A stretch of DNA of 64,000 nt from a plasmid. The stretch lies in NCBI RefSeq assembly GCF_054482525.1, contig NZ_JBTHVG010000003.1. The stretch is one strand, 5' to 3'. This document shows, in pieces, positions 38,152-54,894 of the stretch. Each line of letters begins with the position of its first letter. Positions within the stretch are counted from its first letter, which is position 1. The notes below the pieces were generated by a model, which saw only the letters and a list, made by a program, of their open reading frames with translations, made no database searches and was not told the origin of the DNA. A program made the position numbers and the translations under genes.

Positions 38152-39936
38152 ATGGGTAAGCCAACAGAAGAGCAAAGACCTGTTATCGAGAATGCTAGCG
38201 CAAACAATATGGTGATAGCAGCGCCTGGATCAGGCAAATCATTCACCATGATAGAAGCGGTTATATCGATTCTCAAAAAGTATCCATATGCAAGAATCGG
38301 GATGGTGACCTTTACTCGCGCTGCAACAAACGCACTTGCAGCAAAGTTACAAAAGCGATTGAGCAAGAAGGATCTTGACCGGGTGCTGGTGGATACTTTT
38401 CACGGACTCGTTAAGAAGCAACTGGACATGATTCGCTGGCCGGGAAAGATGTTGATAGGGCCAGCACAGAGATCTGTCATTCACCGGGCTTTGAAAGAAT
38501 CCGGTGTAACGATGAAGTTTGCTGAAGCTGAATTCGTTATTGATGCTATCGGCAGAGAAATGGATACGGATGTGATTTCAGTTCGGCATAACAGACAACA
38601 GATCCATTTATTTAATACCTATCAGGCGTTATGCCAGAAAGACCATGTGGCGGACCTCAATGCTCTTTCAAAATTTGTTGTCGGTCAAATGCATTCGGGA
38701 AAAATGCGCACGTTAGATTTGACACATTTGATAGTAGACGAAGTTCAGGATACTGACTCTATACAATTCTCATGGATAGCATTGCATACAAGAGCTGGAG
38801 TCTATACGAGTATAGTTGGAGACGATGATCAGGCCATCTACTCCTTCAGATCCTCAGGAGGAGTCAAAATATTTCAACAGTTTGAAAAACACTTCAGACC
38901 TAACATATTTTACTTAAACACATGCTTTAGGTGTGAACCTGAAATTTTAGAGGTGGCCGGAGCACTGATAGGAAAGAATGTTTACCGTTATGCCAAAGAG
39001 TTACGCTCGGCAAAAAAGGGAGGAGGAAAGGTCACTTTTCGTTCATATGTAGATATGGAGGAACAGATACAGGGTATTTTAAGCCTTATAAATCAGGATC
39101 CACATGGATGGGCAATTCTAAGCCGCAATAATGCTCACTTGGATGAGCTAGAAAGTTTGATCGAACAGCCAGTAATTCGTTACGGAGGTAAATCATTCTG
39201 GGATGAAAAAGAAACAAGCGATGTGTTAAGCCTTATGGCCTTTTTCCGACAATCAAATGATCCTCGCTTAATGAAGAGAGTATTGGCATTGTTTGGAGAA
39301 CAGGAATCAGTTTTGGATGATGTGGCATTGAGTATGAGAGGAAGAAAAGTTACTTTTGGCGACCTTGCCATCCCGGAGGACAGTTCTCTCGAAACAAAAA
39401 CATTACATTCAAACTTCGTGCGCTTTACCCAGGAAAGTACTGATAAAGTTGAGATAGCAAAACGTTTCGCCAACCTTACGAAATGGATGGAATCGTCGTC
39501 AATCAAGATGAGGAGTAATAAAGGTACAGCAACCTTAACAAAAATTGCTTTAGACACTTGTAAACAGTGGGCAGAAAAGACTGGTTGGATGAATATGATC
39601 AATCGTGCTGCTGCAATGTCATTAGGCCCTAGGAAGAAGGACGAGGAATACAGCCCAGAGAAAGTAGTCCTATCAACCTTGCATGGTTCAAAGGGTCTTG
39701 AGTGGAATAAAGTAATAATAATGAGTTGTAATGCGGATCAGATACCAAGTAAAAGATCAGTTGGGGAGGAGGCAATAGAAGAAGAAAGACGTTTGCTTTA
39801 TGTTGGATTTACGCGTGCAGAAAAGCAACTTTTTGTAATGTGGTATGGTGACCCTTCTTTCTTTTTAAGAGAATGCAGTGAAGAAAAGATAAAAGAAGCA
39901 GCTAATATTCGAATTTCTCCAGTTTATACAGAATAA
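38152..39936 (+). CDS. UvrD/PcrA-like superfamily I DNA helicase (short form)
   Basis: 594 aa. Motif I AAPGSGKSF, motif II VDEVQD, motif III GDDDQAIYSFR, C-terminal LSTLHGSKGLEW. GAGG ribosome-binding site. Confidence 0.85.
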   Translation: MGKPTEEQRPVIENASANNMVIAAPGSGKSFTMIEAVISILKKYPYARIGMVTFTRAATNALAAKLQKRLSKKDLDRVLVDTFHGLVKKQLDMIRWPGKMLIGPAQRSVIHRALKESGVTMKFAEAEFVIDAIGREMDTDVISVRHNRQQIHLFNTYQALCQKDHVADLNALSKFVVGQMHSGKMRTLDLTHLIVDEVQDTDSIQFSWIALHTRAGVYTSIVGDDDQAIYSFRSSGGVKIFQQFEKHFRPNIFYLNTCFRCEPEILEVAGALIGKNVYRYAKELRSAKKGGGKVTFRSYVDMEEQIQGILSLINQDPHGWAILSRNNAHLDELESLIEQPVIRYGGKSFWDEKETSDVLSLMAFFRQSNDPRLMKRVLALFGEQESVLDDVALSMRGRKVTFGDLAIPEDSSLETKTLHSNFVRFTQESTDKVEIAKRFANLTKWMESSSIKMRSNKGTATLTKIALDTCKQWAEKTGWMNMINRAAAMSLGPRKKDEEYSPEKVVLSTLHGSKGLEWNKVIIMSCNADQIPSKRSVGEEAIEEERRLLYVGFTRAEKQLFVMWYGDPSFFLRECSEEKIKEAANIRISPVYTE

Positions 39937-41260: not shown

Positions 41261-41638
41261 ATGTCATATCTTGAATATATCAATGAAGTAAAAGTGTCCG
41301 GGATAGTTATCAGTGCTGTGGAGAAAAAAATGACTGACCAGAGTATAGGTTTGTTAATAAAGCTCAAAAATAGGATGAAGACAGAAGTTGATGGTGAAAT
41401 CACTGAGAGAGAATTTTCAGTTCAAATCAAGGTGTCGCCTGAAATGTATTCAACCTGTTTCACTGGTATAAATCAGGGTGATGAGTTGATGGTCTCCGGT
41501 TATATTGTTGTCGATACTATTATGATTGAAGGGAGAGAACATCCTCTTGACTACATGAGAGTGGTAGCAACAAGTAAGTTGGCTCACATACCTAAACCTC
41601 TAAAAGGTTTTGGACAAAGTAGCTTTAATCAGATCTGA
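41261..41638 (+). CDS. Putative OB-fold ssDNA-binding protein (SSB/PriB-like)
   Basis: 125 aa. Beta-strand pattern (NEVKVSGIVISAV ... ELMVSGYIVVDT) resembles PriB/SSB OB-folds by eye. Weak call. Confidence 0.3.
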   Translation: MSYLEYINEVKVSGIVISAVEKKMTDQSIGLLIKLKNRMKTEVDGEITEREFSVQIKVSPEMYSTCFTGINQGDELMVSGYIVVDTIMIEGREHPLDYMRVVATSKLAHIPKPLKGFGQSSFNQI

Positions 41639-41698: not shown

Positions 41699-42676
41699 AT
41701 GAAACAAAAATTTAGGGCTACTGCAATAAGTAGTAATCAACTTAGTTTTTTTTCTATACTCGATATAGATGAAGATGAAATAACGCAAATAGTTGATTCA
41801 CCCAAAGAGCATTTAAATGATGCTTACACGTCCGGATTAAACTTTAAATCAGAAGAAAGTAACATTTCTGAGATAAATTATGATTCTGAAAGGCGTGAAA
41901 ATCACCTTTATGAAAAATCCAAATTACTTAAAAATCAGATTTTGCATACAATTAATTTTGCAGCAGAAACAGATTATCTATATACGGTTGAAGAATATAA
42001 CCCAGATTTGGGTGGTCTGGTAATAGAATGGACCCCTGAGGATGTGTATGTTGTTTTTCTATCCGCTATGGAAGAGTCTTTGGAAATCATTAAAGAACTA
42101 GTGTTGAGGAGAAAGTTATTCTTCAAAGATGACAATGGTAATATCACAGTGAATCCACTTTTAGAAGCTGAAACACGGTGGTATATGTCAAAATCATTTG
42201 AATACACTTGTTTATGTCATGGACTTGATGCATGTGAATTTAGAGCGGAATTAAAATCATGGCTCTATTATCATTCGCATCGTTCGATTAGTGAAAACAC
42301 GAAATTAGCTGAATGCAGGAATGATGATGAAATCATTTTGCATGATTGCAATGACGATATGGGCTGGGACATCTTCTTTGATCAGGATTATTTAATGTCA
42401 GAAAAAAAACTGGCTGTTAAATGGACTGACAGGGAAATTATGGATGTTTACATAAAAGCTTTTAAATCCACATTAGAGTTGTTTGACGAGCTTGTTTCAT
42501 GTGATCTGTTAACTAAACGAAACGCTTTTGGCAAGTTAGAAATCAATCCAATATTCGAAAATCATTTTGAATGGATCATGTCTGAAGCTTTTGAAATAGT
42601 GGGAAATCATCTTGGTTATAATGTGCCTCAAATCAGGAAACTGATGGCAACTATTTGCCAAATGAATCTCAAATAA
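41699..42676 (+). CDS. Hypothetical protein
   Basis: 325-aa ORF, acidic. Confidence 0.35.
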   Translation: MKQKFRATAISSNQLSFFSILDIDEDEITQIVDSPKEHLNDAYTSGLNFKSEESNISEINYDSERRENHLYEKSKLLKNQILHTINFAAETDYLYTVEEYNPDLGGLVIEWTPEDVYVVFLSAMEESLEIIKELVLRRKLFFKDDNGNITVNPLLEAETRWYMSKSFEYTCLCHGLDACEFRAELKSWLYYHSHRSISENTKLAECRNDDEIILHDCNDDMGWDIFFDQDYLMSEKKLAVKWTDREIMDVYIKAFKSTLELFDELVSCDLLTKRNAFGKLEINPIFENHFEWIMSEAFEIVGNHLGYNVPQIRKLMATICQMNLK

Positions 42677-42733: not shown

Positions 42734-43792
42734 ATGTCTAATGCCGCTATGAAGTTAAATGAAACATCTTCTGATGCTTATGAAAAATTAGAAGCTCTTC
42801 TTTCCCCGGATGTTATAAAGTTAAAACATTATGTGGATAAAGGTGAGTATCTTTTAGTTCTAGCAAAGGACCTTTTTGGTATTCCAGAAATGGATCCAAA
42901 GATGGCTGTGCCTGTTTTCAAAACTAAAACCTCGTATCGAGCTCCGCTGAACAAAGACTACATACCAAATCCCCGAATACTTGAACAAGTGGTTAAACTG
43001 CTTATCAGTCCGGATATAGATTTAAGTGTGTGTCTTAAAGGTGAGTCCGGTTCTGGCAAGACTGAAATGGTAATGTACATTAGCCACATGATGAATTGGC
43101 CGCTGACAATTAAGCAGATCAACAGCAATATTCGAGTTGATGAGCTTGAAGGTGAGCGCAGTCTTAATGGTGGTAATACAGGTTTTGTACACAGCGATTT
43201 GGTAACGGGATTTCGTAATGGTCACCTCATTCTTCTGGATGAAGTGGACAAAATCGATCCTGATACGGCAGCAAAACTTCACATGCCCATTGAACGTAAG
43301 CCCTGGTCACTCAGTGCTAATGGTGGTGAGGTTATAACTGCTAATGGCTACACGCGATTTATTGGTACTGCAAACACAAACATGAGTGGAGGCGCTCGCC
43401 GGTTCGTTTCTTCTCAACGTCAAGATGCAGCTTTTATAAAGCGGTTCTTGATAGTTGAAATGGAGAAGCCCGACAAAGTTGCTTTAACCAATGTGCTTAC
43501 TAAACGATATAGCTCTTTGCCTTTTCAGGTCATTGAGAAGTTCGTAAGAGTAGCGATTGCAGTAAATGACTCTGGTACAGAAGACAGTGTGATGGATATT
43601 CGTCAATTAGTAGCTTGGGTTGGCACGTCGATGACGTTAAAAACCTTTAGTCTTCTTGACACTTTCAAAATAGCTTTTGCTTCTGCTTTACCTTTACATG
43701 TGGTCGATCTTGTTCTTCAAGCTATAGATCTTTCTCTTGGCGAAGACAAGGATAAATCGCTGGAGTATTTCACAGCAAAAAAGTCGAGTTAG
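42734..43792 (+). CDS. MoxR/CbbQ/CobS-like AAA+ ATPase
   Basis: 352 aa. Walker A GESGSGKT, Walker B LILLDEVDK. Partner vWA gene two genes downstream. Confidence 0.8.
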   Translation: MSNAAMKLNETSSDAYEKLEALLSPDVIKLKHYVDKGEYLLVLAKDLFGIPEMDPKMAVPVFKTKTSYRAPLNKDYIPNPRILEQVVKLLISPDIDLSVCLKGESGSGKTEMVMYISHMMNWPLTIKQINSNIRVDELEGERSLNGGNTGFVHSDLVTGFRNGHLILLDEVDKIDPDTAAKLHMPIERKPWSLSANGGEVITANGYTRFIGTANTNMSGGARRFVSSQRQDAAFIKRFLIVEMEKPDKVALTNVLTKRYSSLPFQVIEKFVRVAIAVNDSGTEDSVMDIRQLVAWVGTSMTLKTFSLLDTFKIAFASALPLHVVDLVLQAIDLSLGEDKDKSLEYFTAKKSS

Positions 43793-44101
43793 ATGGGATT
43801 TGTTATGAAACCTCTGATATTTGTATCTCAGAGTTATCCCATCTTGAATTTAGTGCGTTTTTAAGTACGGATGGTGCTGCTACCATTGCTATAGCAAAAA
43901 ACGGAACTAATTTTACTGGACTTATGCAACTGAATAACGACTATTCTTTATTGTTTTATCATGATGGTAAAATAAATATGGAAGGTCTGATTAAACAAAT
44001 GGAATTAAAAGGTTATATGTATCAGGGAGCAATGGGCAATGATGATGTTGTTGCTGAGTTTCCCGGTATTCTTTTAATTTCACCAGAGAAGCTTTAATAT
44101 C

Positions 44102-44150
44102 AACCCTATCGGGAAATCTTTCCCGTTGGGGAGGGTTTCCCCTTTTTTTT
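44102..44150. repeat. Conserved palindromic intergenic element / putative terminator
   Basis: aaccctatcgggaaatctttcccgttggggagggtttcccctttttttt. Confidence 0.5.
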
Positions 44151-44160
44151 GGAGAAACCC

Positions 44161-45288
44161 ATGACTTTAAATACTTCAATGCTTAACAAAGTATCTGCAA
44201 AACAAATCTCTGAGAATTTTGCAAAATCATATCCAGATTTACTGGAAGGTGCAGTTATAACAAAAATTGAAATAAGTGGCTGTCAAGGATCGCGTCGAAC
44301 CGATAAAATCGATTTGTCTTATGATGGAGATGATATTACGGATCAAAAAAGCGTATCTAAAAGCGAAGTACGCTGGATTGACATAAAAGCCCTTAGCTTC
44401 AAAAGTACGATTACCAGCAGAATATCAACTCTTTGCTCACGCTTGTGCATCCGCTATAGCAATATGTGGATTTTACCAGTATCCAGTATGGAAGAGTTTC
44501 TGGAAGGGGCCCAAGAGATTGAACGAGAGTTTCAGGCAGGTATTCAAAACGTTGTAGACAATTATGAGATGCATATTGAGGCTGAAAAAAATAGAAGCCC
44601 AAGAATGTCTTCTTTGATTGATCAGTTGAAATTAACTAAAGATGATTTCATAAAATCCTTTAGATTTAATATTGCTCACTTTATTCCTTTTACGCCTATT
44701 AGCGTTGAAGGTGATGAAACCCAGGACTACTATCAGGAACAATTGATAACAGATCTGGCAGAAGAAGCAATGAAGGTTTATGAAAAAATTAGCAAAAATA
44801 ACAATTTGCGCTCAAGTACTATTGACCGACTGAAGCAAATGCAAAATAAGATCATTAGCTTCATGTTTATACATAAAGAGGCGGCAGTACTTGCAGAAGC
44901 TATAAAACACATAATGAATAATTTACCTAAAGGTGCCATTTCTGAACCTCGCGACGTTGCGGTGTTACAGCAGTGGTTTTATTTCATGAGTGATGCTTCA
45001 ATGTTAAAGCGTATTATTTCAGGAGAGCAAAAGGTTACTGACTGGTTGGAATCTATTACCAGATCATTTAATCAAAGCTCACAAACAGAACCGAACGCGC
45101 TACAGAACACAGGTATTGAAGCTATTTTAGATTCAACAAATGTGTTCCAGGTTGAACCTGTCGTAGAGAACGATATAAATAACAGCACGTTTTCAAACAC
45201 TGATCCTGTAGCTGAACCTGAGAAATCAGTTTCGCAACAGGAAGACAATGTTGAAAATGGTTTTGATATCGAGCTCAAAGGCTGGTAA
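44161..45288 (+). CDS. Hypothetical protein
   Basis: About 375 aa; ATG at 44161 with a GGAG ribosome-binding site. Lies between the AAA+ and vWA genes. Confidence 0.35.
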   Translation: MTLNTSMLNKVSAKQISENFAKSYPDLLEGAVITKIEISGCQGSRRTDKIDLSYDGDDITDQKSVSKSEVRWIDIKALSFKSTITSRISTLCSRLCIRYSNMWILPVSSMEEFLEGAQEIEREFQAGIQNVVDNYEMHIEAEKNRSPRMSSLIDQLKLTKDDFIKSFRFNIAHFIPFTPISVEGDETQDYYQEQLITDLAEEAMKVYEKISKNNNLRSSTIDRLKQMQNKIISFMFIHKEAAVLAEAIKHIMNNLPKGAISEPRDVAVLQQWFYFMSDASMLKRIISGEQKVTDWLESITRSFNQSSQTEPNALQNTGIEAILDSTNVFQVEPVVENDINNSTFSNTDPVAEPEKSVSQQEDNVENGFDIELKGW

Positions 45289-45306
45289 CTGTTTGCTTTA
45301 TTAAAA

Positions 45307-45350
45307 ACCCCAGATGGGTACTTCACCATCTGGGTGAGTACCCCTTTTTT
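45307..45350. repeat. Conserved palindromic intergenic element / putative terminator
   Basis: cccagatgggtacttcaccatctgggtgagtacccctttttt. Confidence 0.5.
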
Positions 45351-45365
45351 ATAAAGAGGTATTCT

Positions 45366-47378
45366 ATGAAATTAGATCTTAAATCATCACCGCGCCATAT
45401 TAAGCGTTTACAGAATATAGCAAAAGTCATTAGCGGCTTAGGCGATGTAAGAGTTGTAATAGACGACAATACCAAAGGACCGTATTTTGATCCTGTAAAT
45501 AAAGTTTGTGTTTTACCAAACGGCGATTATAGCGATGATGACTTTGTCAGTCTGATTGAAGGTTTTACCTGTCATGAAGCTGGTCATGGTCGCTATACCG
45601 ACAGCGAGGTTTACAGTGACGCCTTTAATAGTGTTCTCAAGTCATCTGAAGGGTTTACACGCTTCGATGACGGAATGAATGCAGAGTTTGAGAGCCTCGC
45701 TGAGAAACGTAAAGCTTATAGCAGGGCAAAACGTCTTACCGGGCTTATAAATCTGTTCGATGATGTACAGATGGAAGAGAAGGTTGGTAACGATTATCCG
45801 GATGCAAAGCGGCGGCTTGCAGCCACTTACGCACTGATGGTTAAAGCCGGAAGGATGACTCCTGATATATCTTCTCGTCCGGAAAATCCTGTCCTATTTA
45901 TTGAGTGGTATCTGCTTAACTCATTGCGAGTAAAAGTCCTTCAGCAGGCAGGTCACAAAGAAACACTCGATCCGTTTTTTGACTATGCCCAAAAGATACT
46001 TTCTCCAGTAATTTCTGATGTTGAGGAAATTTTTCATGATGCTCTTGGTTGTGAAAATACTCAGGGCTGTGAATCCCTTGCTCGTAAGACCCTGGCTCTT
46101 TTAGAGAGACTGCGGGATGAGGCAAGGGAACAACAGCAGCAGACAGAGCAGGAGGAGCAGGAGGCATATGATGAATCCGAGACCGATACCGATACCGATA
46201 CCGAATCAGAAGATAAATCGCTTGAGTCGACTGATAGTCGTGAGGATGATTCTGAGGACGATAGTGAAGGTCAGGCAGATACTTCCGATAACTCTGATCT
46301 TGCTCAAGAGGGATGTTCTGAGCCTTCAGAACTTGCTGAAGATAACGAGGGAAATAATGAACCCACCGGTGGCAATCCCACAGGTGATAACATTATTGAA
46401 GACGATACTGATGCGATTAACCCTTCCGAGAGTGAATCAGATGAAGCCAGTTCGACTAACGTTGAAGATGAAAGTAACTTTTCATCGGCTCAATGGGAGA
46501 TACTGGCAGATTTGTTGGATGCCTTTCTTGGCAGTGATGAGGATAGCGAAGATTATCACGATGCTTTGGCTAAAGAGATTGAAGGTATTGCATCAAAAGT
46601 ATCCGATGACGTGAAAGCCGAATTCGGTGCTTCTGAATGGGATATCCCTGATCTCCTTATCGATTTGAATGTTTACAATGAGGCTTTGTCTCTGAGTCAT
46701 TCAATCGGTAGCGACTTGTCTGTTTTACAGCAGGTTAAAATGCGTGGCCGAAACAAAACTCATGAGCGTGGAATTACCTTCGATGGAAATCGATTAATTC
46801 TGTCACCAATGGGAGTTCGTGATGTCTTCAGAGCTCAAAGCGAATCTAAAAATAGAGGGCATGTTGGCCTCGTATTAGTTCGTGATATTTCAGCGTCAAT
46901 GGCTAATGATGAAAGATATATTCATGCCATTAAGTCAGATCTTGCTTTATCGATGGCCGCTGAAAGTTTGTCAAAAATGCATGTCTCCAATATAGTCTTT
47001 CCCTTCAAGGAAAGTGAATTTGAGATTATCAAAACGTTTGATCAAAGCGTTGAGGAATCTCTATCGAAATTCACTCTTGGATGTAAGGGTTATTATACCC
47101 CTACGGGATCGGCTTTAATGGCAGCTGTTGATCTGTTACTTGACAGCCAATTCGATAGGAAAATAATTTTTCTTATAACTGATGGTTATCCGAATAAATC
47201 GGAATTTACTATCGGCGAAGTTATGGAAAAGGCTAAGTGTAATGGAATAGAAATCGTTGGTGTTGGTATTAAGACTGATGAAATAATTGGTTTTGAAACG
47301 GACACTTTCGTAACAGTTGATGATACTTCTTTATTGTCTATTGAAGTCAGTAAGCTAGTTCATCAAATACTTTCTTAA
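45366..47378 (+). CDS. von Willebrand factor A (vWA/MIDAS) protein, CobT-like, with a highly acidic low-complexity linker
   Basis: 670 aa. MIDAS DxSxS (VRDISASM). Central acidic tract (EQEEQEAYDESETDTDTDTESEDKSLESTDSREDDSEDDSE). Paired with an upstream MoxR-type ATPase. Confidence 0.7.
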   Translation: MKLDLKSSPRHIKRLQNIAKVISGLGDVRVVIDDNTKGPYFDPVNKVCVLPNGDYSDDDFVSLIEGFTCHEAGHGRYTDSEVYSDAFNSVLKSSEGFTRFDDGMNAEFESLAEKRKAYSRAKRLTGLINLFDDVQMEEKVGNDYPDAKRRLAATYALMVKAGRMTPDISSRPENPVLFIEWYLLNSLRVKVLQQAGHKETLDPFFDYAQKILSPVISDVEEIFHDALGCENTQGCESLARKTLALLERLRDEAREQQQQTEQEEQEAYDESETDTDTDTESEDKSLESTDSREDDSEDDSEGQADTSDNSDLAQEGCSEPSELAEDNEGNNEPTGGNPTGDNIIEDDTDAINPSESESDEASSTNVEDESNFSSAQWEILADLLDAFLGSDEDSEDYHDALAKEIEGIASKVSDDVKAEFGASEWDIPDLLIDLNVYNEALSLSHSIGSDLSVLQQVKMRGRNKTHERGITFDGNRLILSPMGVRDVFRAQSESKNRGHVGLVLVRDISASMANDERYIHAIKSDLALSMAAESLSKMHVSNIVFPFKESEFEIIKTFDQSVEESLSKFTLGCKGYYTPTGSALMAAVDLLLDSQFDRKIIFLITDGYPNKSEFTIGEVMEKAKCNGIEIVGVGIKTDEIIGFETDTFVTVDDTSLLSIEVSKLVHQILS

Positions 47379-47386
47379 TAAACTCT

Positions 47387-47423
47387 ACCCAATCGGGGCA
47401 AAAGGCCCCGGTGGGTCTTTTTG
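47387..47423. repeat. Palindromic intergenic element / putative terminator
   Basis: cccaatcggggcaaaaggccccggtgggtctttttgc. Confidence 0.5.
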
Positions 47424-47676: not shown

Positions 47677-47700
47677 GAGGGCCCCCGGGCCCTCTTTCTT
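47677..47700. terminator. Putative intrinsic terminator (GAGGGCCCCCGGGCCCTC palindrome)
   Basis: Perfect GC palindrome followed by a T-rich run. Confidence 0.55.
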
Positions 47701-47784: not shown

Positions 47785-49017
47785 ATGACTTATGCATCCC
47801 CGGCTCTTCGTCGTAATCCACAGGAAGTATCTGAACACTTTATTAAACTCGTTCATGCTCGAATTGCTGAAGTGTCTGGCTGGAAGTATATATTCGAAAG
47901 AATACCTGCTTTCAAAGACGCTTGTGCAAAAGCCCCGAGCCAGGTTCCTTGCCCGTTTACTGGCGCAGGGAAATCGAAGTTTCGTTTCCGACAAAAAGAC
48001 CTTTATACCGGATGTGCGATCCATAATGACTTTCCGGTAAATGAGTTTTGCGACGGAATTGATGTTCTGGCGAAATATTATGAATTAAGTAAAACGCAGA
48101 CTTGCAAAAAGATTCTCTCAGATTTTTTCGGGATGGATCTGCATGCTCCGTTAACTGACGCCGACATTGAAAATGAACGACGCTATAAATCAGCAGTTCG
48201 TGCCACAGAAACTCTTGACCGAGAGGAAGTGGCAAAGCGAATGCGAAAACTTGATGTGATGTATCACTATACCGGTGAAATCAAGCCTAATACTCCTGTT
48301 GCTTTGTACCTCCGTAATCGTGGGATCTCCCGCTTACTGAGTCACTTACCAAAGGATTTAGGCTTTAATAACCGGATCTACTATTGGGATAAAGATAAGC
48401 AGAAATCGATTATCTATCCGGGAATGATTGCGATCTATCGTGACACCCGAGGTCGGCCTCTGACTATTCATAGAACATACGTAGACAAAAATGGTGATAA
48501 GGCACCTGTAGAAAATCCAAAGCTGATGATGAAGCCTCCTGCCGATATGACAGGTGGCTCAATTCAGTTGTTTGACCCTCACTATGATTCAGGTAGTTCG
48601 ACCTGGACACTGGGAGTGGCTGAAGGGATCGAGAACGCGCTTTCTGTTGTAGAAGCGACTTCAACACCATGCTGGGCAGCCAGCTCCGCATGGTGCCTTG
48701 AAAACGTTACTGTTCCTGATTTTTTACTGCCTCCGCCGGATGTAAAATCTATAAACTTTTATATCTGGGCGGATAAGGATATTGCTAACTCACAAGGCAC
48801 TCGTGCCGGTATTGAAGCTGCTCAGCGACTTCAAAGCCGCATGGTTGAGTTTTTGGCTAAACGATATCCCGCATCAAAGCTGACAATTGAAGTCTTCGAA
48901 CCAGCACAAGATATTCCTGATGGGAAAAAGGGTATCGACTGGAACGATGTTCTCCAGTTAACAGGGCAGGATGGATTCCCGATTCACTGGGCTCCTGAAT
49001 GTCTTAATCAGCTGTAA
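47785..49017 (+). CDS. Primase-like protein (degenerate primase zinc-ribbon-like segment plus Toprim-like domain)
   Basis: PCPFTGAGKSKFRF resembles the CPxCGGxDRF primase zinc-ribbon motif. Toprim-like acidic motifs (LGVAEGIENA; IWADKDIANSQG). ATG at 47785 with an AGAGAG ribosome-binding site. Confidence 0.55.
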   Translation: MTYASPALRRNPQEVSEHFIKLVHARIAEVSGWKYIFERIPAFKDACAKAPSQVPCPFTGAGKSKFRFRQKDLYTGCAIHNDFPVNEFCDGIDVLAKYYELSKTQTCKKILSDFFGMDLHAPLTDADIENERRYKSAVRATETLDREEVAKRMRKLDVMYHYTGEIKPNTPVALYLRNRGISRLLSHLPKDLGFNNRIYYWDKDKQKSIIYPGMIAIYRDTRGRPLTIHRTYVDKNGDKAPVENPKLMMKPPADMTGGSIQLFDPHYDSGSSTWTLGVAEGIENALSVVEATSTPCWAASSAWCLENVTVPDFLLPPPDVKSINFYIWADKDIANSQGTRAGIEAAQRLQSRMVEFLAKRYPASKLTIEVFEPAQDIPDGKKGIDWNDVLQLTGQDGFPIHWAPECLNQL

Positions 49018-49028
49018 CAACGATAACT

Positions 49029-49887: not shown

Positions 49888-50766
49888 ATGAAGTTAGCTA
49901 CGGACCTGGTAAAAGCTATTTTGATTAGAAATGGCGTTGAACCAGTAAATATAAGCGAATCATCTAAGTTATCTTTGAAACAACCACTGACAGAACTTAA
50001 ATTCAGTTTATATTTGCGAACTGAGCATTTATCTCACTTCCTACCCGGTTATGTTTATTCTATAAAAGAATGTCCACTGTCATATGACATCGGGATCGAA
50101 ATTCAGAAAATCTTCGAAAGTTTACATTTGTTAAACGAAGAATTTGAATCCCTCGGTTTTGTTTCTGTATGGATAGAAATGCATCAAAGCATTTTTGAAC
50201 AAAGTCGGTTTAAGAAAAGTAACTTTACTTTTCGGGAGGAAGAGGTCGAGCTTGCTAAAGGGCTTGTTTGTTCTCACAATTCACAAATAAGTAATGCGGC
50301 TTATTTCTGGCTTCAGCACTTTGAGGAGTTTATGATTTATGTTCGTAATAAGCTTATCGACCTCTTTCGAGAGGCCTATGACCTGATCCTTGGAATGCAG
50401 CAAGTATTTTTCATTCGGGAAAAGGAAGAGCTGTTGAAAACTATAAGTTATGGCGATGAGCTGTATGAGGTGAAATTCATGGCGGCTGAGCTTTACTCTA
50501 TCGAACAGAACTTAAAGTGTTCTGAATCGATAAGTACAAAATCTCAAGCTTCGGCATATATTAACCGCATCCGTGAGTTTGTGCGTTCGGGGTGGAGGCA
50601 GGGCTATATAGTCTGCCATCATAAGCGAAGTAATCAAATTTCATCATTGTCATTACCGATGTACTTGAAAGATACGTCAGGCCGAAGTGCTCGAAAGCGA
50701 GTAAAACGTCTTATATCTTCTACAGTTTGTGGTAGAAATAAAGATTTAGGTCTTACAGATTTTTAA
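49888..50766 (+). CDS. Hypothetical protein, paralogue 1 of a five-gene tandem family
   Basis: 292 aa. N-terminal pattern (MKLATDLVKAILIRNGVEP...) shared with the next four ORFs. Confidence 0.4.
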   Translation: MKLATDLVKAILIRNGVEPVNISESSKLSLKQPLTELKFSLYLRTEHLSHFLPGYVYSIKECPLSYDIGIEIQKIFESLHLLNEEFESLGFVSVWIEMHQSIFEQSRFKKSNFTFREEEVELAKGLVCSHNSQISNAAYFWLQHFEEFMIYVRNKLIDLFREAYDLILGMQQVFFIREKEELLKTISYGDELYEVKFMAAELYSIEQNLKCSESISTKSQASAYINRIREFVRSGWRQGYIVCHHKRSNQISSLSLPMYLKDTSGRSARKRVKRLISSTVCGRNKDLGLTDF

Positions 50767-50776
50767 TTAAATTATA

Positions 50777-50820
50777 CCCATGTGGGGATCACACCCCATA
50801 TGGGAGTGATCCCTTTTTTT
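50777..50820. repeat. Conserved palindromic intergenic element / putative terminator
   Basis: cccatgtggggatcacaccccatatgggagtgatcccttttttt. Confidence 0.6.
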
Positions 50821-50836
50821 ATTGAGAGAGGATCAC

Positions 50837-51772
50837 ATGAAAATTATCGAAAAAATCATTAATGCCTTTTTGGTTGTTCAACATAAAAAAATACAGGTTA
50901 AAAACATTACATTTTTAGACAATGGGCAGGGCATGTTCTCTGGTATGTCTTTTGATGCTGATGTTTCACTGGAGTTTATGTATGAATCAGCAAAAGCATA
51001 TAGTTCTTGTTTCTGTGATATTCCCTTTCCAGGTTTTGAAGATGCAAATCTGGAGGAAATTACGAAATTTCAATTAGATGCTTTGAAGCAAAGAAAGAAT
51101 CATTCTTTCTTTGTTAACCATTTGAGGTTTCCTATAGTTTTAAGGGAAGGGTGCAAAATCGAAAGAGGAGAAGTCTATTCAATTTCGAATTGCACTTATA
51201 ATAAAGAAAGATTGCAGTATCTTTTTTCTCAGGATATTTACGGTAAGTTGTATAATTCCTTAGAGAAAGAATTAAGCTCGTTTTTCTCATTTATCAATGT
51301 TGAGGTGCACGAGTTGTTAAAAGATGCTGTATGCTTTGCATTAAAAATCCTGAATAAGATATCTTTGGATACACCTGAAAGACTTATTAAAGCTTTTAAT
51401 TATCGTGACTGGTATTGTAGTTACGATGTTGAGCTTTTTAGGAAAGGCTTACCTGGTCATATTCTGGAAGAGCTCATTGCTCCAGATATCTTACTTTCAG
51501 ACCTTAACGGTTGTAGAAAAATACTTAGAAATGCAAAACGATTTCTAAATGGACATACACAAACCAATTGTGTTTATATTAAATATGAATGGTGGTTGGG
51601 GCCTGTTGATACCTCACACTCAGCTAAGTTGATGTCTGACAAAGAAATTAATAACCGAAGTGACTTGAAGAATTTTTCAAAGGTCTTTTTCAAAGAGTGT
51701 TTAAGTTCTGGTAAGTCGGAATATGAAAACCATCTTAGTGAAAAAGAACATGCGCTTCGCTATAATTATTAA
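50837..51772 (+). CDS. Hypothetical protein, paralogue 2 of the tandem family
   Basis: 311 aa; ATG at 50837 after GAGAGAGGA; N-terminus MKIIEKIINAFLVVQ... Confidence 0.4.
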   Translation: MKIIEKIINAFLVVQHKKIQVKNITFLDNGQGMFSGMSFDADVSLEFMYESAKAYSSCFCDIPFPGFEDANLEEITKFQLDALKQRKNHSFFVNHLRFPIVLREGCKIERGEVYSISNCTYNKERLQYLFSQDIYGKLYNSLEKELSSFFSFINVEVHELLKDAVCFALKILNKISLDTPERLIKAFNYRDWYCSYDVELFRKGLPGHILEELIAPDILLSDLNGCRKILRNAKRFLNGHTQTNCVYIKYEWWLGPVDTSHSAKLMSDKEINNRSDLKNFSKVFFKECLSSGKSEYENHLSEKEHALRYNY

Positions 51773-51783
51773 TTAAAATTATT

Positions 51784-51823
51784 TTCTCCCATAGGGATTT
51801 CTCCCTATGGGAGAAATCCCTCT
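51784..51823. repeat. Conserved palindromic intergenic element (GGGATTTCTCCC / GGGAGAAATCCC arms)
   Basis: ttctcccatagggatttctccctatgggagaaatccctc. Perfect 12-bp arms with a 3-nt loop; same arms as the element at 41645-41690. Confidence 0.65.
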
Positions 51824-51840
51824 ATTAAGAGGGTATTGAA

Positions 51841-52761
51841 ATGAATGCTATACAAAAGTTAGTTGAATCTATTCTTGTTAAAATGGGTTTTGTTGGCGCT
51901 GTAGTGGAAAATATATATTTGGATTCAAAACCATTTCGGCATATTCGATTTGTGGCTGATATTCCAGTAATATCTTTTCTACCTCATTTGGTGAAATATC
52001 TTAAGGGTGCAGACCATCTTTACAGTGGTAACGATGATTTGCATCCTCTTTTCATTTATTTTTCCGAAGCGGCTACATTAAAAGCAGGTCCTGTAAATCT
52101 CGCGAACTTTCGTTTTGAAGTTTCTATAGCTTCAACTCATTTACGACTGGTCTCAGAGCAGCCTGATTTGCTTTTCAAAGGATTTAACCGGGATAATCTA
52201 GAATACGTTTATTACCGCTCAGATTTGGCCTCTAAGGATCTTATACTAGGCCTTGTTGAACACGGTTCTCCTTTCATAAAACATCTACATGGACTTATAC
52301 AAAAGCGAATTTTAAACGAGTTCTCTCTGATTTTTTCTGTTCTTGAAAAGATTTTAGAAAGCGCGAAGCCACAAATTCTTGCTTGCTTCCATAGTGTTGA
52401 TTATGAAATGAACGTAAAAATAATAGCCGAAGCTATACCTGAAACTGTATCTAATCAGATAGTCACATCTGATTATATAGTTAATTCTATATCAGATGCG
52501 GACAAGTTTATAAATCATGTTCGTCGCTATTTAGCAGGCAGGGTAATGAAGAGGCGGATATACGCTGAATTAGATGTTTGTGAAGAAACATCAAGTATTT
52601 CACTAGTGAACTTAGGATGCTTTACGTCTCCTCTGCTCGTTACGGAATATCAAATGTTTAAGCCACACTCTTCAGGGTTATATCGAAAAGCTATAAACAA
52701 CTCCTTAAAACAGTTCAAACCAGAAATGCATGTACCTTCTGAAGAACTCTTTTATAATTAA
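51841..52761 (+). CDS. Hypothetical protein, paralogue 3 of the tandem family
   Basis: 306 aa; N-terminus MNAIQKLVESILVKMGF... Confidence 0.4.
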   Translation: MNAIQKLVESILVKMGFVGAVVENIYLDSKPFRHIRFVADIPVISFLPHLVKYLKGADHLYSGNDDLHPLFIYFSEAATLKAGPVNLANFRFEVSIASTHLRLVSEQPDLLFKGFNRDNLEYVYYRSDLASKDLILGLVEHGSPFIKHLHGLIQKRILNEFSLIFSVLEKILESAKPQILACFHSVDYEMNVKIIAEAIPETVSNQIVTSDYIVNSISDADKFINHVRRYLAGRVMKRRIYAELDVCEETSSISLVNLGCFTSPLLVTEYQMFKPHSSGLYRKAINNSLKQFKPEMHVPSEELFYN

Positions 52762-52766
52762 TCTAA

Positions 52767-52810
52767 CCCATCCGGGAACCTGCTTCCCGGTGGGAAGCAC
52801 TTCCTTTTTA
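52767..52810. repeat. Conserved palindromic intergenic element
   Basis: cccatccgggaacctgcttcccggtgggaagcacttccttttta. Preceded by ATCTAACCCA, as is the element at 53879. Confidence 0.55.
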
Positions 52811-52827
52811 GTCATGAGGTAGTGTAA

Positions 52828-53766
52828 ATGTTTAAAGAATCTGACCACGTGGAATTTGTTAGTGCCTTTCTTTATCAAAATTTAGGCCTTAATGTTTCCG
52901 CTGACGATATAACCGTTCAATTATCTGATACTTCGTTCGACAAAGTAACCTTTGATTACGATGTAGATATCGATAATTTAAATTGTATGTTGGATCTCTA
53001 CATATCTGAGCTAATAAAGCACAACGCATCTTACTCCGATTCTATTCTTTTGAAACAAAAAATAATTTATTTTCTTGGAGTATTTAAGAATTTCGGATTT
53101 TTTACGTTTGATATTCGCGGATATAGTAATACTTTAAGCCCAGTTAAAGTTATTGATATTGTTTCAATGATTATTAATGACTGTGAAGAGTTATCTAAAG
53201 CTAATTCTTCTACTGATGCTATAAGAAATCTTTATCTCGATAAAATGAAGGTGGATGGGAAAGTGTTAGTTGCGAAATTTGCACTTAAACAGTTTTTTCA
53301 TTCCGACTTTGGTGACTTTATCTCATTTGTCGAGAAAAGAATTACAGATTGTCTTAATGAAACTTTAAGGATTATCAAAGCTGTTGAACATGGCTTTGTA
53401 CGTGTAGGGCAGCATAAGATTAATCGCCGTATTAATGATGACTTAAAGTTATGCATTGATTTCAATACTGATGATTATCCGGCAAATATGCCAGATATAT
53501 ATATTAAGTTTAACGATACATTTGATGGGAACGGGGCGTTATATTGTGACAATGATGCCCTCATATCCCTCTATACCGATGTTGCTTCAATTATCAATGT
53601 GCCGGTGATGATGGAAGTAAGATTGATCAATAAAAGAGGGCGTGTTGTCTGTGATTCTTCGCATTCAACTTACGTATCTCTCGAAAGTAATGACCGATAC
53701 AGAGTAACTGATCGCACATTACTAATAACTGAAGCTTTTGACGATTTTCGTAACGCGTCTCAATGA
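52828..53766 (+). CDS. Hypothetical protein, paralogue 4 of the tandem family
   Basis: 312 aa. Clearly paralogous to the next ORF (VDGKVLVAKFALKQFFHSDF versus VDGQVMIARFALQQFWDTHF; C-terminal DRTLLITEAFDDFRN versus DRNDLVSEVFDNLRN). Confidence 0.45.
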   Translation: MFKESDHVEFVSAFLYQNLGLNVSADDITVQLSDTSFDKVTFDYDVDIDNLNCMLDLYISELIKHNASYSDSILLKQKIIYFLGVFKNFGFFTFDIRGYSNTLSPVKVIDIVSMIINDCEELSKANSSTDAIRNLYLDKMKVDGKVLVAKFALKQFFHSDFGDFISFVEKRITDCLNETLRIIKAVEHGFVRVGQHKINRRINDDLKLCIDFNTDDYPANMPDIYIKFNDTFDGNGALYCDNDALISLYTDVASIINVPVMMEVRLINKRGRVVCDSSHSTYVSLESNDRYRVTDRTLLITEAFDDFRNASQ

Positions 53767-53878
53767 TCCTTTTGCTTCAGTCCAAAAAAGTAACTTTGGT
53801 TGGCTGAAGACACTTGTCTATGACAATGTAAAATCTGTCGCTGGCATCTTCTTTTAGCTTAACCAAATTTTTATCTAA

Positions 53879-53919
53879 CCCAGTGGGGAAGTCGCTTCCC
53901 TTCTGGGGCACTTCCTCTC
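53879..53919. repeat. Conserved palindromic intergenic element
   Basis: cccagtggggaagtcgcttcccttctggggcacttcctctc. Downstream ribosome-binding context GAGGTAGTGTA is shared with the 52828 gene. Confidence 0.55.
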
Positions 53920-53931
53920 AAATTCGAGGTA

Positions 53932-54894
53932 GTGTATATGACACATTCATCTGATGATAAAAACTATGTCCGAGCAGTTCTGAGTTATCTTGGCATAGAT
54001 TTTGATGAGGCGGATATAGTATTAAGTGTTTGCCATTGTCAAAGTGACGAGCTTTCTTTTACCTGTAATATCAAAGCTATTGAACTCAAGAATGTTGTTG
54101 ATTTATATGTCGATAGTATCTCTGAGAATGAAATAGAAGCTTTAAACAGAGAATCTTTAAAATCGCGACTCTGTTACTTTCTTGAGGTGTTTGACGCAGT
54201 CTCTGGTCAGTACCTTGAAATTTCAGGAAAACACTTTGCAACTAGTCGTTTTGAATATGATGATGTTTGTAGTGAAGTTCTTAGCATGTCTAATGATGTT
54301 TCTCAGTCGAAAGGTTATGACCGGGATGAATATAACAGACTGATGCAGGTTGATGGTCAGGTTATGATTGCCCGTTTTGCTTTGCAACAGTTCTGGGATA
54401 CTCATTTTATTGGACTAATAACATTTGTATCTGAGTCTATAACATCGAGCCTCTATAAAGCTTATGAAACTTTTAGTGATATTAGTTTGGCTTGCTATAA
54501 ACTGAGTGAATATTCTTATTCACGCTCTATCAACAGTGAATTGACCCTTAATATTTCACTTAAAGAAAATGACTTCTGTGAGGACCTATCTGATTGCTAT
54601 ATGGAAGATGAGGCTTTACCTTCTGGTAGGGTAATTTCTCGACGCAACAATGACTCCATAATAAGTATTTATGAGAGCTATGCTGCGGCTTCTTATATTC
54701 CGATGATTGCATCTTTGGAAGTCGTTGATGAATACGGCGAAGTGGTTACTGACCTCTGCCATACCGTTTATGTTTCAGAGTTAACCGGTGGGCGGATTAA
54801 AATCCACGACCGTAATGACTTAGTATCTGAAGTTTTCGATAACCTAAGAAATTTAAATCTTGCAGTTGGAGATTCAGTTTCACAAGCTGCTTGA
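53932..54894 (+). CDS. Hypothetical protein, paralogue 5 of the tandem family
   Basis: 320 aa; paralogous to the 52828 ORF. Confidence 0.45.
   Translation: MYMTHSSDDKNYVRAVLSYLGIDFDEADIVLSVCHCQSDELSFTCNIKAIELKNVVDLYVDSISENEIEALNRESLKSRLCYFLEVFDAVSGQYLEISGKHFATSRFEYDDVCSEVLSMSNDVSQSKGYDRDEYNRLMQVDGQVMIARFALQQFWDTHFIGLITFVSESITSSLYKAYETFSDISLACYKLSEYSYSRSINSELTLNISLKENDFCEDLSDCYMEDEALPSGRVISRRNNDSIISIYESYAAASYIPMIASLEVVDEYGEVVTDLCHTVYVSELTGGRIKIHDRNDLVSEVFDNLRNLNLAVGDSVSQAA

Follow-up and report, generated by a model that had tools for sequence, protein, structure and literature searches.

What does a pair of proteins resembling CobS and CobT, two components of the cobaltochelatase CobSTN, do on a conjugative plasmid? 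The question is raised by positions 42734–47378 of a 64,000-nucleotide stretch of plasmid DNA (NCBI RefSeq assembly GCF_054482525.1, contig NZ_JBTHVG010000003.1), referred to here as the window, in which a MoxR/CobS-type AAA+ ATPase, a protein of the Pfam family DUF3150, and a CobT-like protein with a von Willebrand factor A (vWA) domain and its MIDAS (metal ion-dependent adhesion site) are encoded in succession. An original prediction, made from the letters of the window, proposed that these genes form a DNA-transaction or anti-defense module rather than a metabolic one. Our analysis agrees that the module is not a vitamin B12 enzyme. From comparison with its relatives, the module of this IncHI2 plasmid would act, at a probability of about 0.5, in anti-defense and establishment during the entry phase, especially in the evasion of type I restriction, with a CobST-like complex that remodels, and perhaps cleaves, a client. 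What is new here is the intact protease motif within a full CobT architecture, the tail motif of the DUF3150 protein, and the extra conserved genes; the module as such was already known to be widely conserved, and part of its function has been studied in a sister plasmid family.

The CobT-like protein carries an HExxH motif

The vWA protein (670 aa, 45366–47378) has the full CobT plan, with an N-terminal domain (N-domain), a disordered acidic linker, and a C-terminal vWA domain that is recognized by Pfam. The DxSxS signature of the MIDAS, which the original prediction had pointed out, is present as D507-I-S-A-S511, and the residues D507, S509, and S511, together with T578 and D606, are invariant across an alignment of 14 homologues. 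A profile made from these 14 sequences matches vWA domains, those of CobT and NorD among them. The Pfam family CobT has no match on the window protein; relatives of the protein match Pfam CobT and CobT_C. A profile search for more distant vWA homologues returned few, low-complexity words dominating the result.

In terms of overall architecture, the point of reference is the solved CobSTN complex of a 2026 preprint, in which the N-domain of CobT comprises one helix, a three-stranded sheet, and eight helices and is peptidase M48C-like, followed by a disordered linker of ~90–100 residues and by a vWA domain with a MIDAS and an N-terminal helical extension. The AlphaFold model of the window N-domain (predicted local distance difference test score 95.8, predicted template modeling score 0.90) contains an N-terminal helix, a three-stranded sheet, and an HExxH-bearing helix, and its agreement with the parts of CobT described in the preprint is the basis on which the CobT plan is assigned to the window protein.

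In its sequence, the N-domain carries an intact zincin HExxH...E motif on a predicted M48-like fold. The invariant residues are H70-E71-x-x-H74 (within CHEAGHGRYTD) and N129, D133, and E137 (within NLFDDVQMEE); in the model, H70, E71, and H74 sit within the helix of residues 58–77 and E137 within that of residues 111–143. HExxH is retained in 13 of 14 non-viral homologues and in all 18 of the homologues examined from viral contigs, and the phage counterpart family phrog_459 (7e-168) is labelled “peptidase” in PHROGs. A Foldseek comparison of the N-domain with the PDB gave no significant match, the N-domain profile gave none against one CobT sequence, and tblastn of the N-domain against phage records found no match. 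No discussion of a protease motif in the plasmid proteins was found in the literature searched.

The acidic linker with its DT/SE repeats is as the original prediction described it. Its 145 residues (251–395) include 54 D/E and 3 K/R, for a net charge of −51, and the repeats read TDTDTDTESE and SEDDSEDDSE. The further suggestion that the linker mimics nucleic acid finds no specific support. A linker is found in every homologue, its sequence not being conserved; that of the IncC homologue is rich in Q, N, and G and not strongly acidic, and that of a bona fide CobT (P0177), a protein with no HExxH, is acidic, with a net charge of −36. Since an acidic linker is a trait of the CobT family, metabolic CobT included, it is no specific evidence of DNA mimicry.

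The ATPase and the DUF3150 protein

The partner of the vWA protein is an AAA+ ATPase whose Walker motifs are intact, as originally predicted, GESGSGKT at residues 103–110 (43040–43063) and LILLDE at residues 165–170 (43226–43243). It matches Pfam AAA_5 over residues 99–238 (9.2e-28) and phrog_249 (2.5e-30). Its best solved relatives are the midasin AAA modules, NorQ, CobS, and CbbQ, and the alignment with CobS spans residues 43–300, almost end to end; with the CobT plan of the vWA protein and the CobT and CobT_C matches of its relatives, the earlier description of a CobS/CobT-like pair stands. With 275 residues aligned at 27% identity (E 2.5e-26), Vcrx089 of IncC plasmids is closer to the ATPase than CobS or NorQ, which score 36–40 bits. 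The CbbQ_C lid domain that is reported for Vcrx089 is not reported by Pfam for the window ATPase and is weak in one relative. Its vWA partner is encoded 1.6 kb downstream of it, on the same strand, and the pairing of the two genes is retained in every related locus of sufficient length.

The gene between them, which had been put down as unknown, belongs to DUF3150 (PF11348; 3.7e-23, residues 28–262) and in related loci always stands just upstream of the CobT-like gene. The family has 118 representatives in a search of 1.84 billion proteins. The last residue is F, W, or Y in 56 of 60 aligned members, the background being 7%, and 29 members of the alignment close with [FWY]-G-x(0-3)-[FWY]. The tail of the window protein (45190–45288) is disordered, and tails in the family are often acidic; such a flexible tail, with its aromatic end, has the look of a docking peptide. 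In phage genomes DUF3150 has no tblastn match and no PHROG, yet it is present in five IMG/VR contigs from one sample. Literature searches on DUF3150, and on IncHI2 together with VWA, gave nothing useful.

A backbone module of MOBH/MPF_F conjugative elements

The window is part of an IncHI2 (R478-type, MOBH/MPF_F) conjugative plasmid. Hundreds of plasmids of Escherichia coli, Salmonella, Enterobacter, and Klebsiella carry the 4.6-kb region at 100% identity, and at an identity of at least 99% it occurs in 1113 plasmid records, most of them typed as conjugative; plasmids within 272 complete E. coli genomes also match it. The representative plasmid pSTM6-275 is typed as IncHI2A, its relaxase as MOBH, and its mating system as MPF_F. 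In its Tra2 block, trhN is followed by a reverse-strand hypothetical gene, the trhI helicase gene, and three hypothetical genes, and then by the AAA ATPase, a 57-aa open reading frame (ORF), DUF3150, and the VWA protein, after which come a 73-aa ORF and the toprim protein.

The trio is co-conserved well beyond IncHI2, recurring in plasmids, metagenomic contigs, and some phage contigs. The ATPase, DUF3150, and HExxH-vWA genes stand together in a Klebsiella MOBH plasmid (DUF3150 identity 40%), an Aeromonas MOBH plasmid (20%), a Shewanella plasmid, IncHI1 pHCM1, IncT Rts1, IncC plasmids, and metagenomic contigs. Such an identity in 1113 records, combined with the recurrence of the gene set at a DUF3150 identity of ~20%, indicates that the pattern is not due to chance. 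Miyakoshi et al. (2009; PMC2642839) had reported that ORF100–103 of pCAR1, which include a MoxR ATPase and a VWA protein, are conserved in R478, Rts1, SXT, and R391. With this published conservation and the anti-restriction data considered below, the original remark that the function of such pairs outside cobalt chelation is largely unknown was too broad. The module belongs to the backbone of MOBH/MPF_F conjugative elements (IncHI, IncT, IncA/C, IncP-7, and SXT/R391) and is found in some phages.

The module is also larger than the trio. At least two further conserved genes, a 325-aa gene and a small ORF, belong to it; these, like the HExxH motif, had been missed in the original prediction. Homologues of the 325-aa gene stand immediately upstream of the AAA+ gene in five related loci (L003, L005, L007, L011, and L012), and segments 100–203 and 240–319 of its product match one shared part of a shorter protein in L005. 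The 325-aa protein has no match in Pfam, NCBIfam, or PHROGs. The small ORF is related to the C-terminal part of a protein of 165–183 aa, which relatives encode between the ATPase and DUF3150. Its homologue in IncHI1 pHCM1 has 89 aa and a GTG start and aligns over 32 codons that are startless in IncHI2. This small family has no Pfam match; a WGR-like motif (K..KGY) was suspected in it, to which Pfam gave no support.

In viral contigs the ATPase and the HExxH-vWA protein form a constant core in three arrangements, which DUF3150 joins in the five contigs of one sample, adjoining genes for a DNA polymerase and an exonuclease. The phage MoxR-vWA pair (PHROGs 249 and 459/1576/17276) is like the plasmid pair in that the HExxH motif, the acidic region, and the MIDAS are present in 18 of 18 viral homologues examined; it is unlike it in that most phage loci lack DUF3150 and show a reversed gene order or an ATPase with a long N-terminal extension. 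A comparative study of jumbo phages (PMC7824862) described a MoxR-vWA pair with an N-terminal metallopeptidase and proposed a part in virion assembly, a role that is inapplicable here because the module is on a plasmid. As a separate observation, the CobS-like ATPase of viral contigs L014–L017 and L024 makes up the C-terminal half of a protein of 640–730 aa, behind the long N-terminal extension.

Several natural IncHI2 plasmids among the matches carry IS1203, IS903B, IS1B, or ISApl1 inside the 4.6-kb region, and in IncT Rts1 the CobT-like vWA gene is split by IS2 (locus L013, 19030–22192). These insertion sequences (IS) in natural IncHI2 plasmids and the split gene of Rts1 indicate that the module is dispensable for plasmid maintenance.

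Relation to the anti-restriction system of IncC plasmids

For the AAA+ homologue of IncC plasmids, experiments support the anti-defense role put forward in the original prediction. Roy et al. (2020; PMC7498323), who describe Vcrx089 as AAA_5 plus CbbQ_C, found that deletion of vcrx089-090 lowers IncC transfer into restricting Vibrio cholerae 25-fold; the defect was abolished in a ΔhsdR recipient and was rescued by expression in the recipient, not in the donor. For pKAZ3 without vcrx089-90, Dimitriu et al. (2024; PMC11602122) found restriction by EcoBI/EcoKI to rise 424- to 906-fold, and AntiDefenseFinder holds the two genes as the system “vcrx089_090.”

The IncC and IncHI2 loci are alike in that their ATPases are homologous, that both lie downstream of traN/trhN in MOBH/MPF_F elements, and that the IncC locus also has DUF3150 and HExxH-vWA genes. 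The vWA proteins are 22% identical over the full length (E 3e-21) and the DUF3150 proteins 19% identical (E 4e-4). The loci differ in arrangement and content. The IncC order is ATPase, vcrx090, ssb, bet, exo, DUF3150, and VWA, so that the ATPase gene is parted from the DUF3150 and vWA genes by four others, whereas the IncHI2 genes are contiguous; bet and exo are absent from the IncHI2 block, as is a homologue of Vcrx090. The published IncC operon transcript reaches vcrx094, which by its position after exo (vcrx093) is the DUF3150 gene.

A mechanism for the IncHI2 module can be sketched from CobST homology. Two contacts would join the CobS-like AAA+ hexamer to the CobT-like protein, one made by the latter's N-domain and the other by its helical extension with the vWA domain. 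The MIDAS face would hold the client, which the vWA/MIDAS face and the N-domain would clamp as CobT clamps CobN, and ATP hydrolysis would remodel it. As HExxH...E is complete in the N-domain, unlike in CobT, the client may be cleaved too. The DUF3150 protein would likely be an adaptor or third subunit, standing in place of the CobN of the chelatase. Such a complex would protect or establish the plasmid just after its entry into a new cell, and type I restriction evasion would be its most likely role because the IncC ATPase homologue does so.

Several points weigh against this assignment. The window ATPase is only 27% identical to Vcrx089. Vcrx090, an obligate partner both in the IncC work and in the two-gene definition of AntiDefenseFinder, is matched by nothing in the window and by nothing in the non-IncC loci examined, Rts1 included, whether by blastp, tblastn, or hhalign. 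The family of the conserved upstream gene and that of the small intervening ORF are both unrelated to Vcrx090 by hhalign, and Vcrx090 itself has no Pfam match. The published anti-restriction experiments concern vcrx089-090, not the DUF3150 or vWA protein, and the IncC transposon insertion sequencing compared Cas+ with Cas− recipients (PMC7498323) and so is uninformative on whether restriction evasion needs those two proteins. Early transfer and expression of the region, which may occur, are an assumption. The synteny with genes for a helicase, a single-stranded DNA-binding protein (SSB), a primase, and, in phage contigs, a DNA polymerase fits a role in replication equally well.

A bolder version of the proposal, which we consider decidedly unlikely, is that the motor, the DUF3150 protein, and the HExxH CobT-like protein together constitute an ATP-driven, MIDAS-targeted protease that plasmids and phages deploy on entry against type I restriction or other defense proteins, and that the CobT of the chelatase would descend from a protease adaptor of mobile elements and have lost its catalytic activity.

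Alternative explanations

The main rival is a chaperone of replication and establishment, in which the AAA+/vWA machine would assemble or remodel the TrhI helicase, an SSB-like protein, and the primase on incoming single-stranded DNA, in the manner of MoxR/vWA pairs that mature complexes and with no counter-defense; we regard it as unlikely. It draws on the gene neighborhood, in which the flanking helicase and primase named by the original prediction are borne out as a UvrD-type helicase and a toprim/primase protein; the “OB-fold” label that it gave to 41261–41638 finds no profile match. Helicase, SSB, or toprim genes are often near the module in relatives. The module lies between the UvrD-type helicase and the toprim primase in the IncHI2, IncHI1, and Klebsiella loci, the helicase being at the same relative position in L002, L003, L005, and L012 (IncHI1), and toprim genes adjoining the module in L002, L003, L007 (Shewanella), L010, and L012. 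The synteny is looser in Aeromonas, where helicase and toprim are both upstream, and in Shewanella, which has toprim only. Genes for SSB, Bet, and Exo are interleaved with the module in IncC and Rts1, a Pfam SSB gene stands in the upstream block of L005, several genes before the ATPase, and the trio of the phage-like contigs adjoins the DNA polymerase and exonuclease genes described above. The aromatic-ended disordered tail of DUF3150 also recalls the C-terminal tip of SSB. Against a chaperone of this kind, the phenotype of the IncC ATPase is gone in a ΔhsdR recipient, a sign of restriction and not of replication; Rts1, whose vWA gene IS2 has disrupted, still replicates and transfers; and IS-disrupted copies exist in natural IncHI2 plasmids.

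An accessory function in the donor, where the module would help to build or mature either the F-type mating apparatus or the MOBH relaxosome, appears improbable. The location would suit it, since the module is inside the Tra2 block right after trhN and trhI in IncHI2 and has traN on one side and traF/traH on the other in IncC, Rts1, and SXT-type elements, and in SXT, deletions of s067, s068, and s070 within the block cut transfer by up to 10-fold (Wozniak et al., 2009; these names are not mapped to single genes). The SXT effects are small, however, the IncC defect is complemented from the recipient and not from the donor, and the pair also occurs in phages, which have no mating apparatus. A deletion study of Rts1 defined 32 genes for efficient conjugation and did not list the trio among those of moderate effect, a weak argument in that the vWA gene of Rts1 is already split by IS2, so that the study is silent on whether the module is necessary.

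Still less probable is a chelatase-like chaperone that would insert or exchange a metal in a metalloprotein of the plasmid or host, as CobST, NorQD, and CbbQO do. Among solved structures NorQ and CobS are closest to the ATPase, its partner is built like CobT, and a gene for a YfaE-like 2Fe-2S ferredoxin lies a few genes downstream of the module in IncC (L006, 20775 onward) and in Shewanella (L007, 9880–10332). The neighborhood, however, holds no CobN/ChlH-type large subunit and no obvious metalloenzyme client: the 27 genes annotated in the surrounding 28.6 kb include no CobN, the remainder of the window not having been scanned specifically for it. The ATPase scores 34.4 bits against the CobS equivalog model TIGR01650, whose cutoff is 558.55; an adaptor that served a chelatase alone would not be expected to keep an intact HExxH, which real CobT lacks; and the module travels on mobile elements across hosts. 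A genuine cobaltochelatase is rejected on the scores, the missing CobN, and the intact HExxH, in line with the original view that the locus is not metabolic. The likeness to CobSTN, which lies in an AAA_5 ATPase that aligns nearly end to end with CobS and in a partner with the CobT plan, is offset by scores far below the family cutoffs of both CobS and CobT, by the retained HExxH...E, by the extra DUF3150 gene between the pair, and by the placement of the genes on plasmids, integrative and conjugative elements, and phages. The pairs NorQ-NorD, CbbQ-CbbO, and RavA-ViaA likewise join a MoxR-class AAA+ hexamer to a vWA/MIDAS adaptor for the remodeling of a specific client, but their adaptors lack an HExxH N-domain, their clients are known metabolic enzymes, and their operons are chromosomal.

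The least probable alternative is a plasmid-borne vWA-MoxR system of defense or competition, aimed at phages or rival plasmids, in which the HExxH domain would be the effector. A peptidase could serve as such, and ternary vWA-MoxR systems that include effector domains have been described as conflict systems (PMC7159879), but the homologue's published phenotype is anti-restriction, the pair is common in lytic-type phage contigs, which fits offense better than defense, and no PADLOC model matches the DUF3150 or vWA protein, the ATPase having weak generic AAA+ matches (E 2e-4 or weaker). On this negative PADLOC result, a known defense system is rejected.

Other features of the locus

The coordinates of the module and of its flanking genes are collected in Table 1.

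Table 1. Features in and around the module (positions in the window)
Feature	Position	Strand	Remarks
TrhI, UvrD-type helicase	38152–39936	+	Profile matches; syntenic neighbor
Conserved 325-aa gene	41699–42676	+	Directly upstream of ATPase; internally duplicated
MoxR/CobS-type AAA+ ATPase, 352 aa	42734–43792	+	Pfam AAA_5, PDB matches, motifs
Small conserved ORF	43792–44100	+	Annotated as 57 aa at 43924–44097; frame open back to ATPase stop
Terminator-like hairpin and T8	44111–44141	+	14-pair stem, 7 GC pairs; consensus match only
DUF3150 protein	44161–45288	+	Core ~residues 8–308; disordered tail ending ...FDIELKGW
CobT-like protein, N-domain, residues 1–250	45366–46115	+	HEAGH 45573–45587; E137 45774–45776; predicted M48-like zincin fold
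CobT-like protein, acidic low-complexity linker, residues 251–395	46116–46550	+	Net charge −51
CobT-like protein, helical extension and vWA domain (C-terminal)	46551–47378	+	Pfam VWA; MIDAS DISAS 46884–46898
Toprim-domain primase	47785–49017	+	phrog_510 DNA primase, 1.4e-27; syntenic neighbor

The junction between the ATPase gene and the small ORF suggests a possible programmed −1 frameshift from the one into the other. The ATPase gene ends in GCA AAA AAG TCG AGT TAG, with the in-frame heptamer A_AAA_AAG at 43777–43783, 7 nucleotides before the stop; A_AAA_AAG is a classical slippery site for −1 shifts. From the heptamer onward the −1 frame stays open into the small ORF (43777–44100), whose first 32 conserved codons include no ATG, GTG, or TTG in IncHI2. 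In IncHI1 pHCM1 (L012, 5040–5361), GCA AAA AAG also stands just before the stop and the −1 frame is open. A hairpin starting 7 nucleotides downstream of the heptamer has z = −2.56 in IncHI2 and −1.42 in IncHI1. With 49 copies of the heptamer in the window, the frameshift stays a weak lead.

Between 37000 and 50000 the window has 23 terminator-like hairpins, compared with 9.7 in shuffled sequences. Strong hairpins come after the small ORF (at 44111), the vWA gene (at 47392), the 73-aa ORF (at 47677), and the primase gene (at 49027), and the genes may be transcriptionally punctuated by them. Further downstream, two adjacent hypothetical genes of 312 and 320 aa (52828–54894) are paralogues (27% identity, E 2e-37) within a run of five similar-sized hypothetical genes (49888–54894), the other three of which resemble, by blastp, neither this pair nor one another.

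Implications

In E. coli, Salmonella, and Enterobacter, IncHI2 plasmids are major carriers of multidrug-resistance genes. Should the module indeed act against restriction in the entry phase, it would help to explain the broad host range of MOBH elements, and it would represent a second, vcrx090-independent version of a system that is now used for annotating anti-defense genes. The intact protease motif provides a concrete mechanistic handle and may also clarify the role of the widespread “cobS/cobT” genes of phages.

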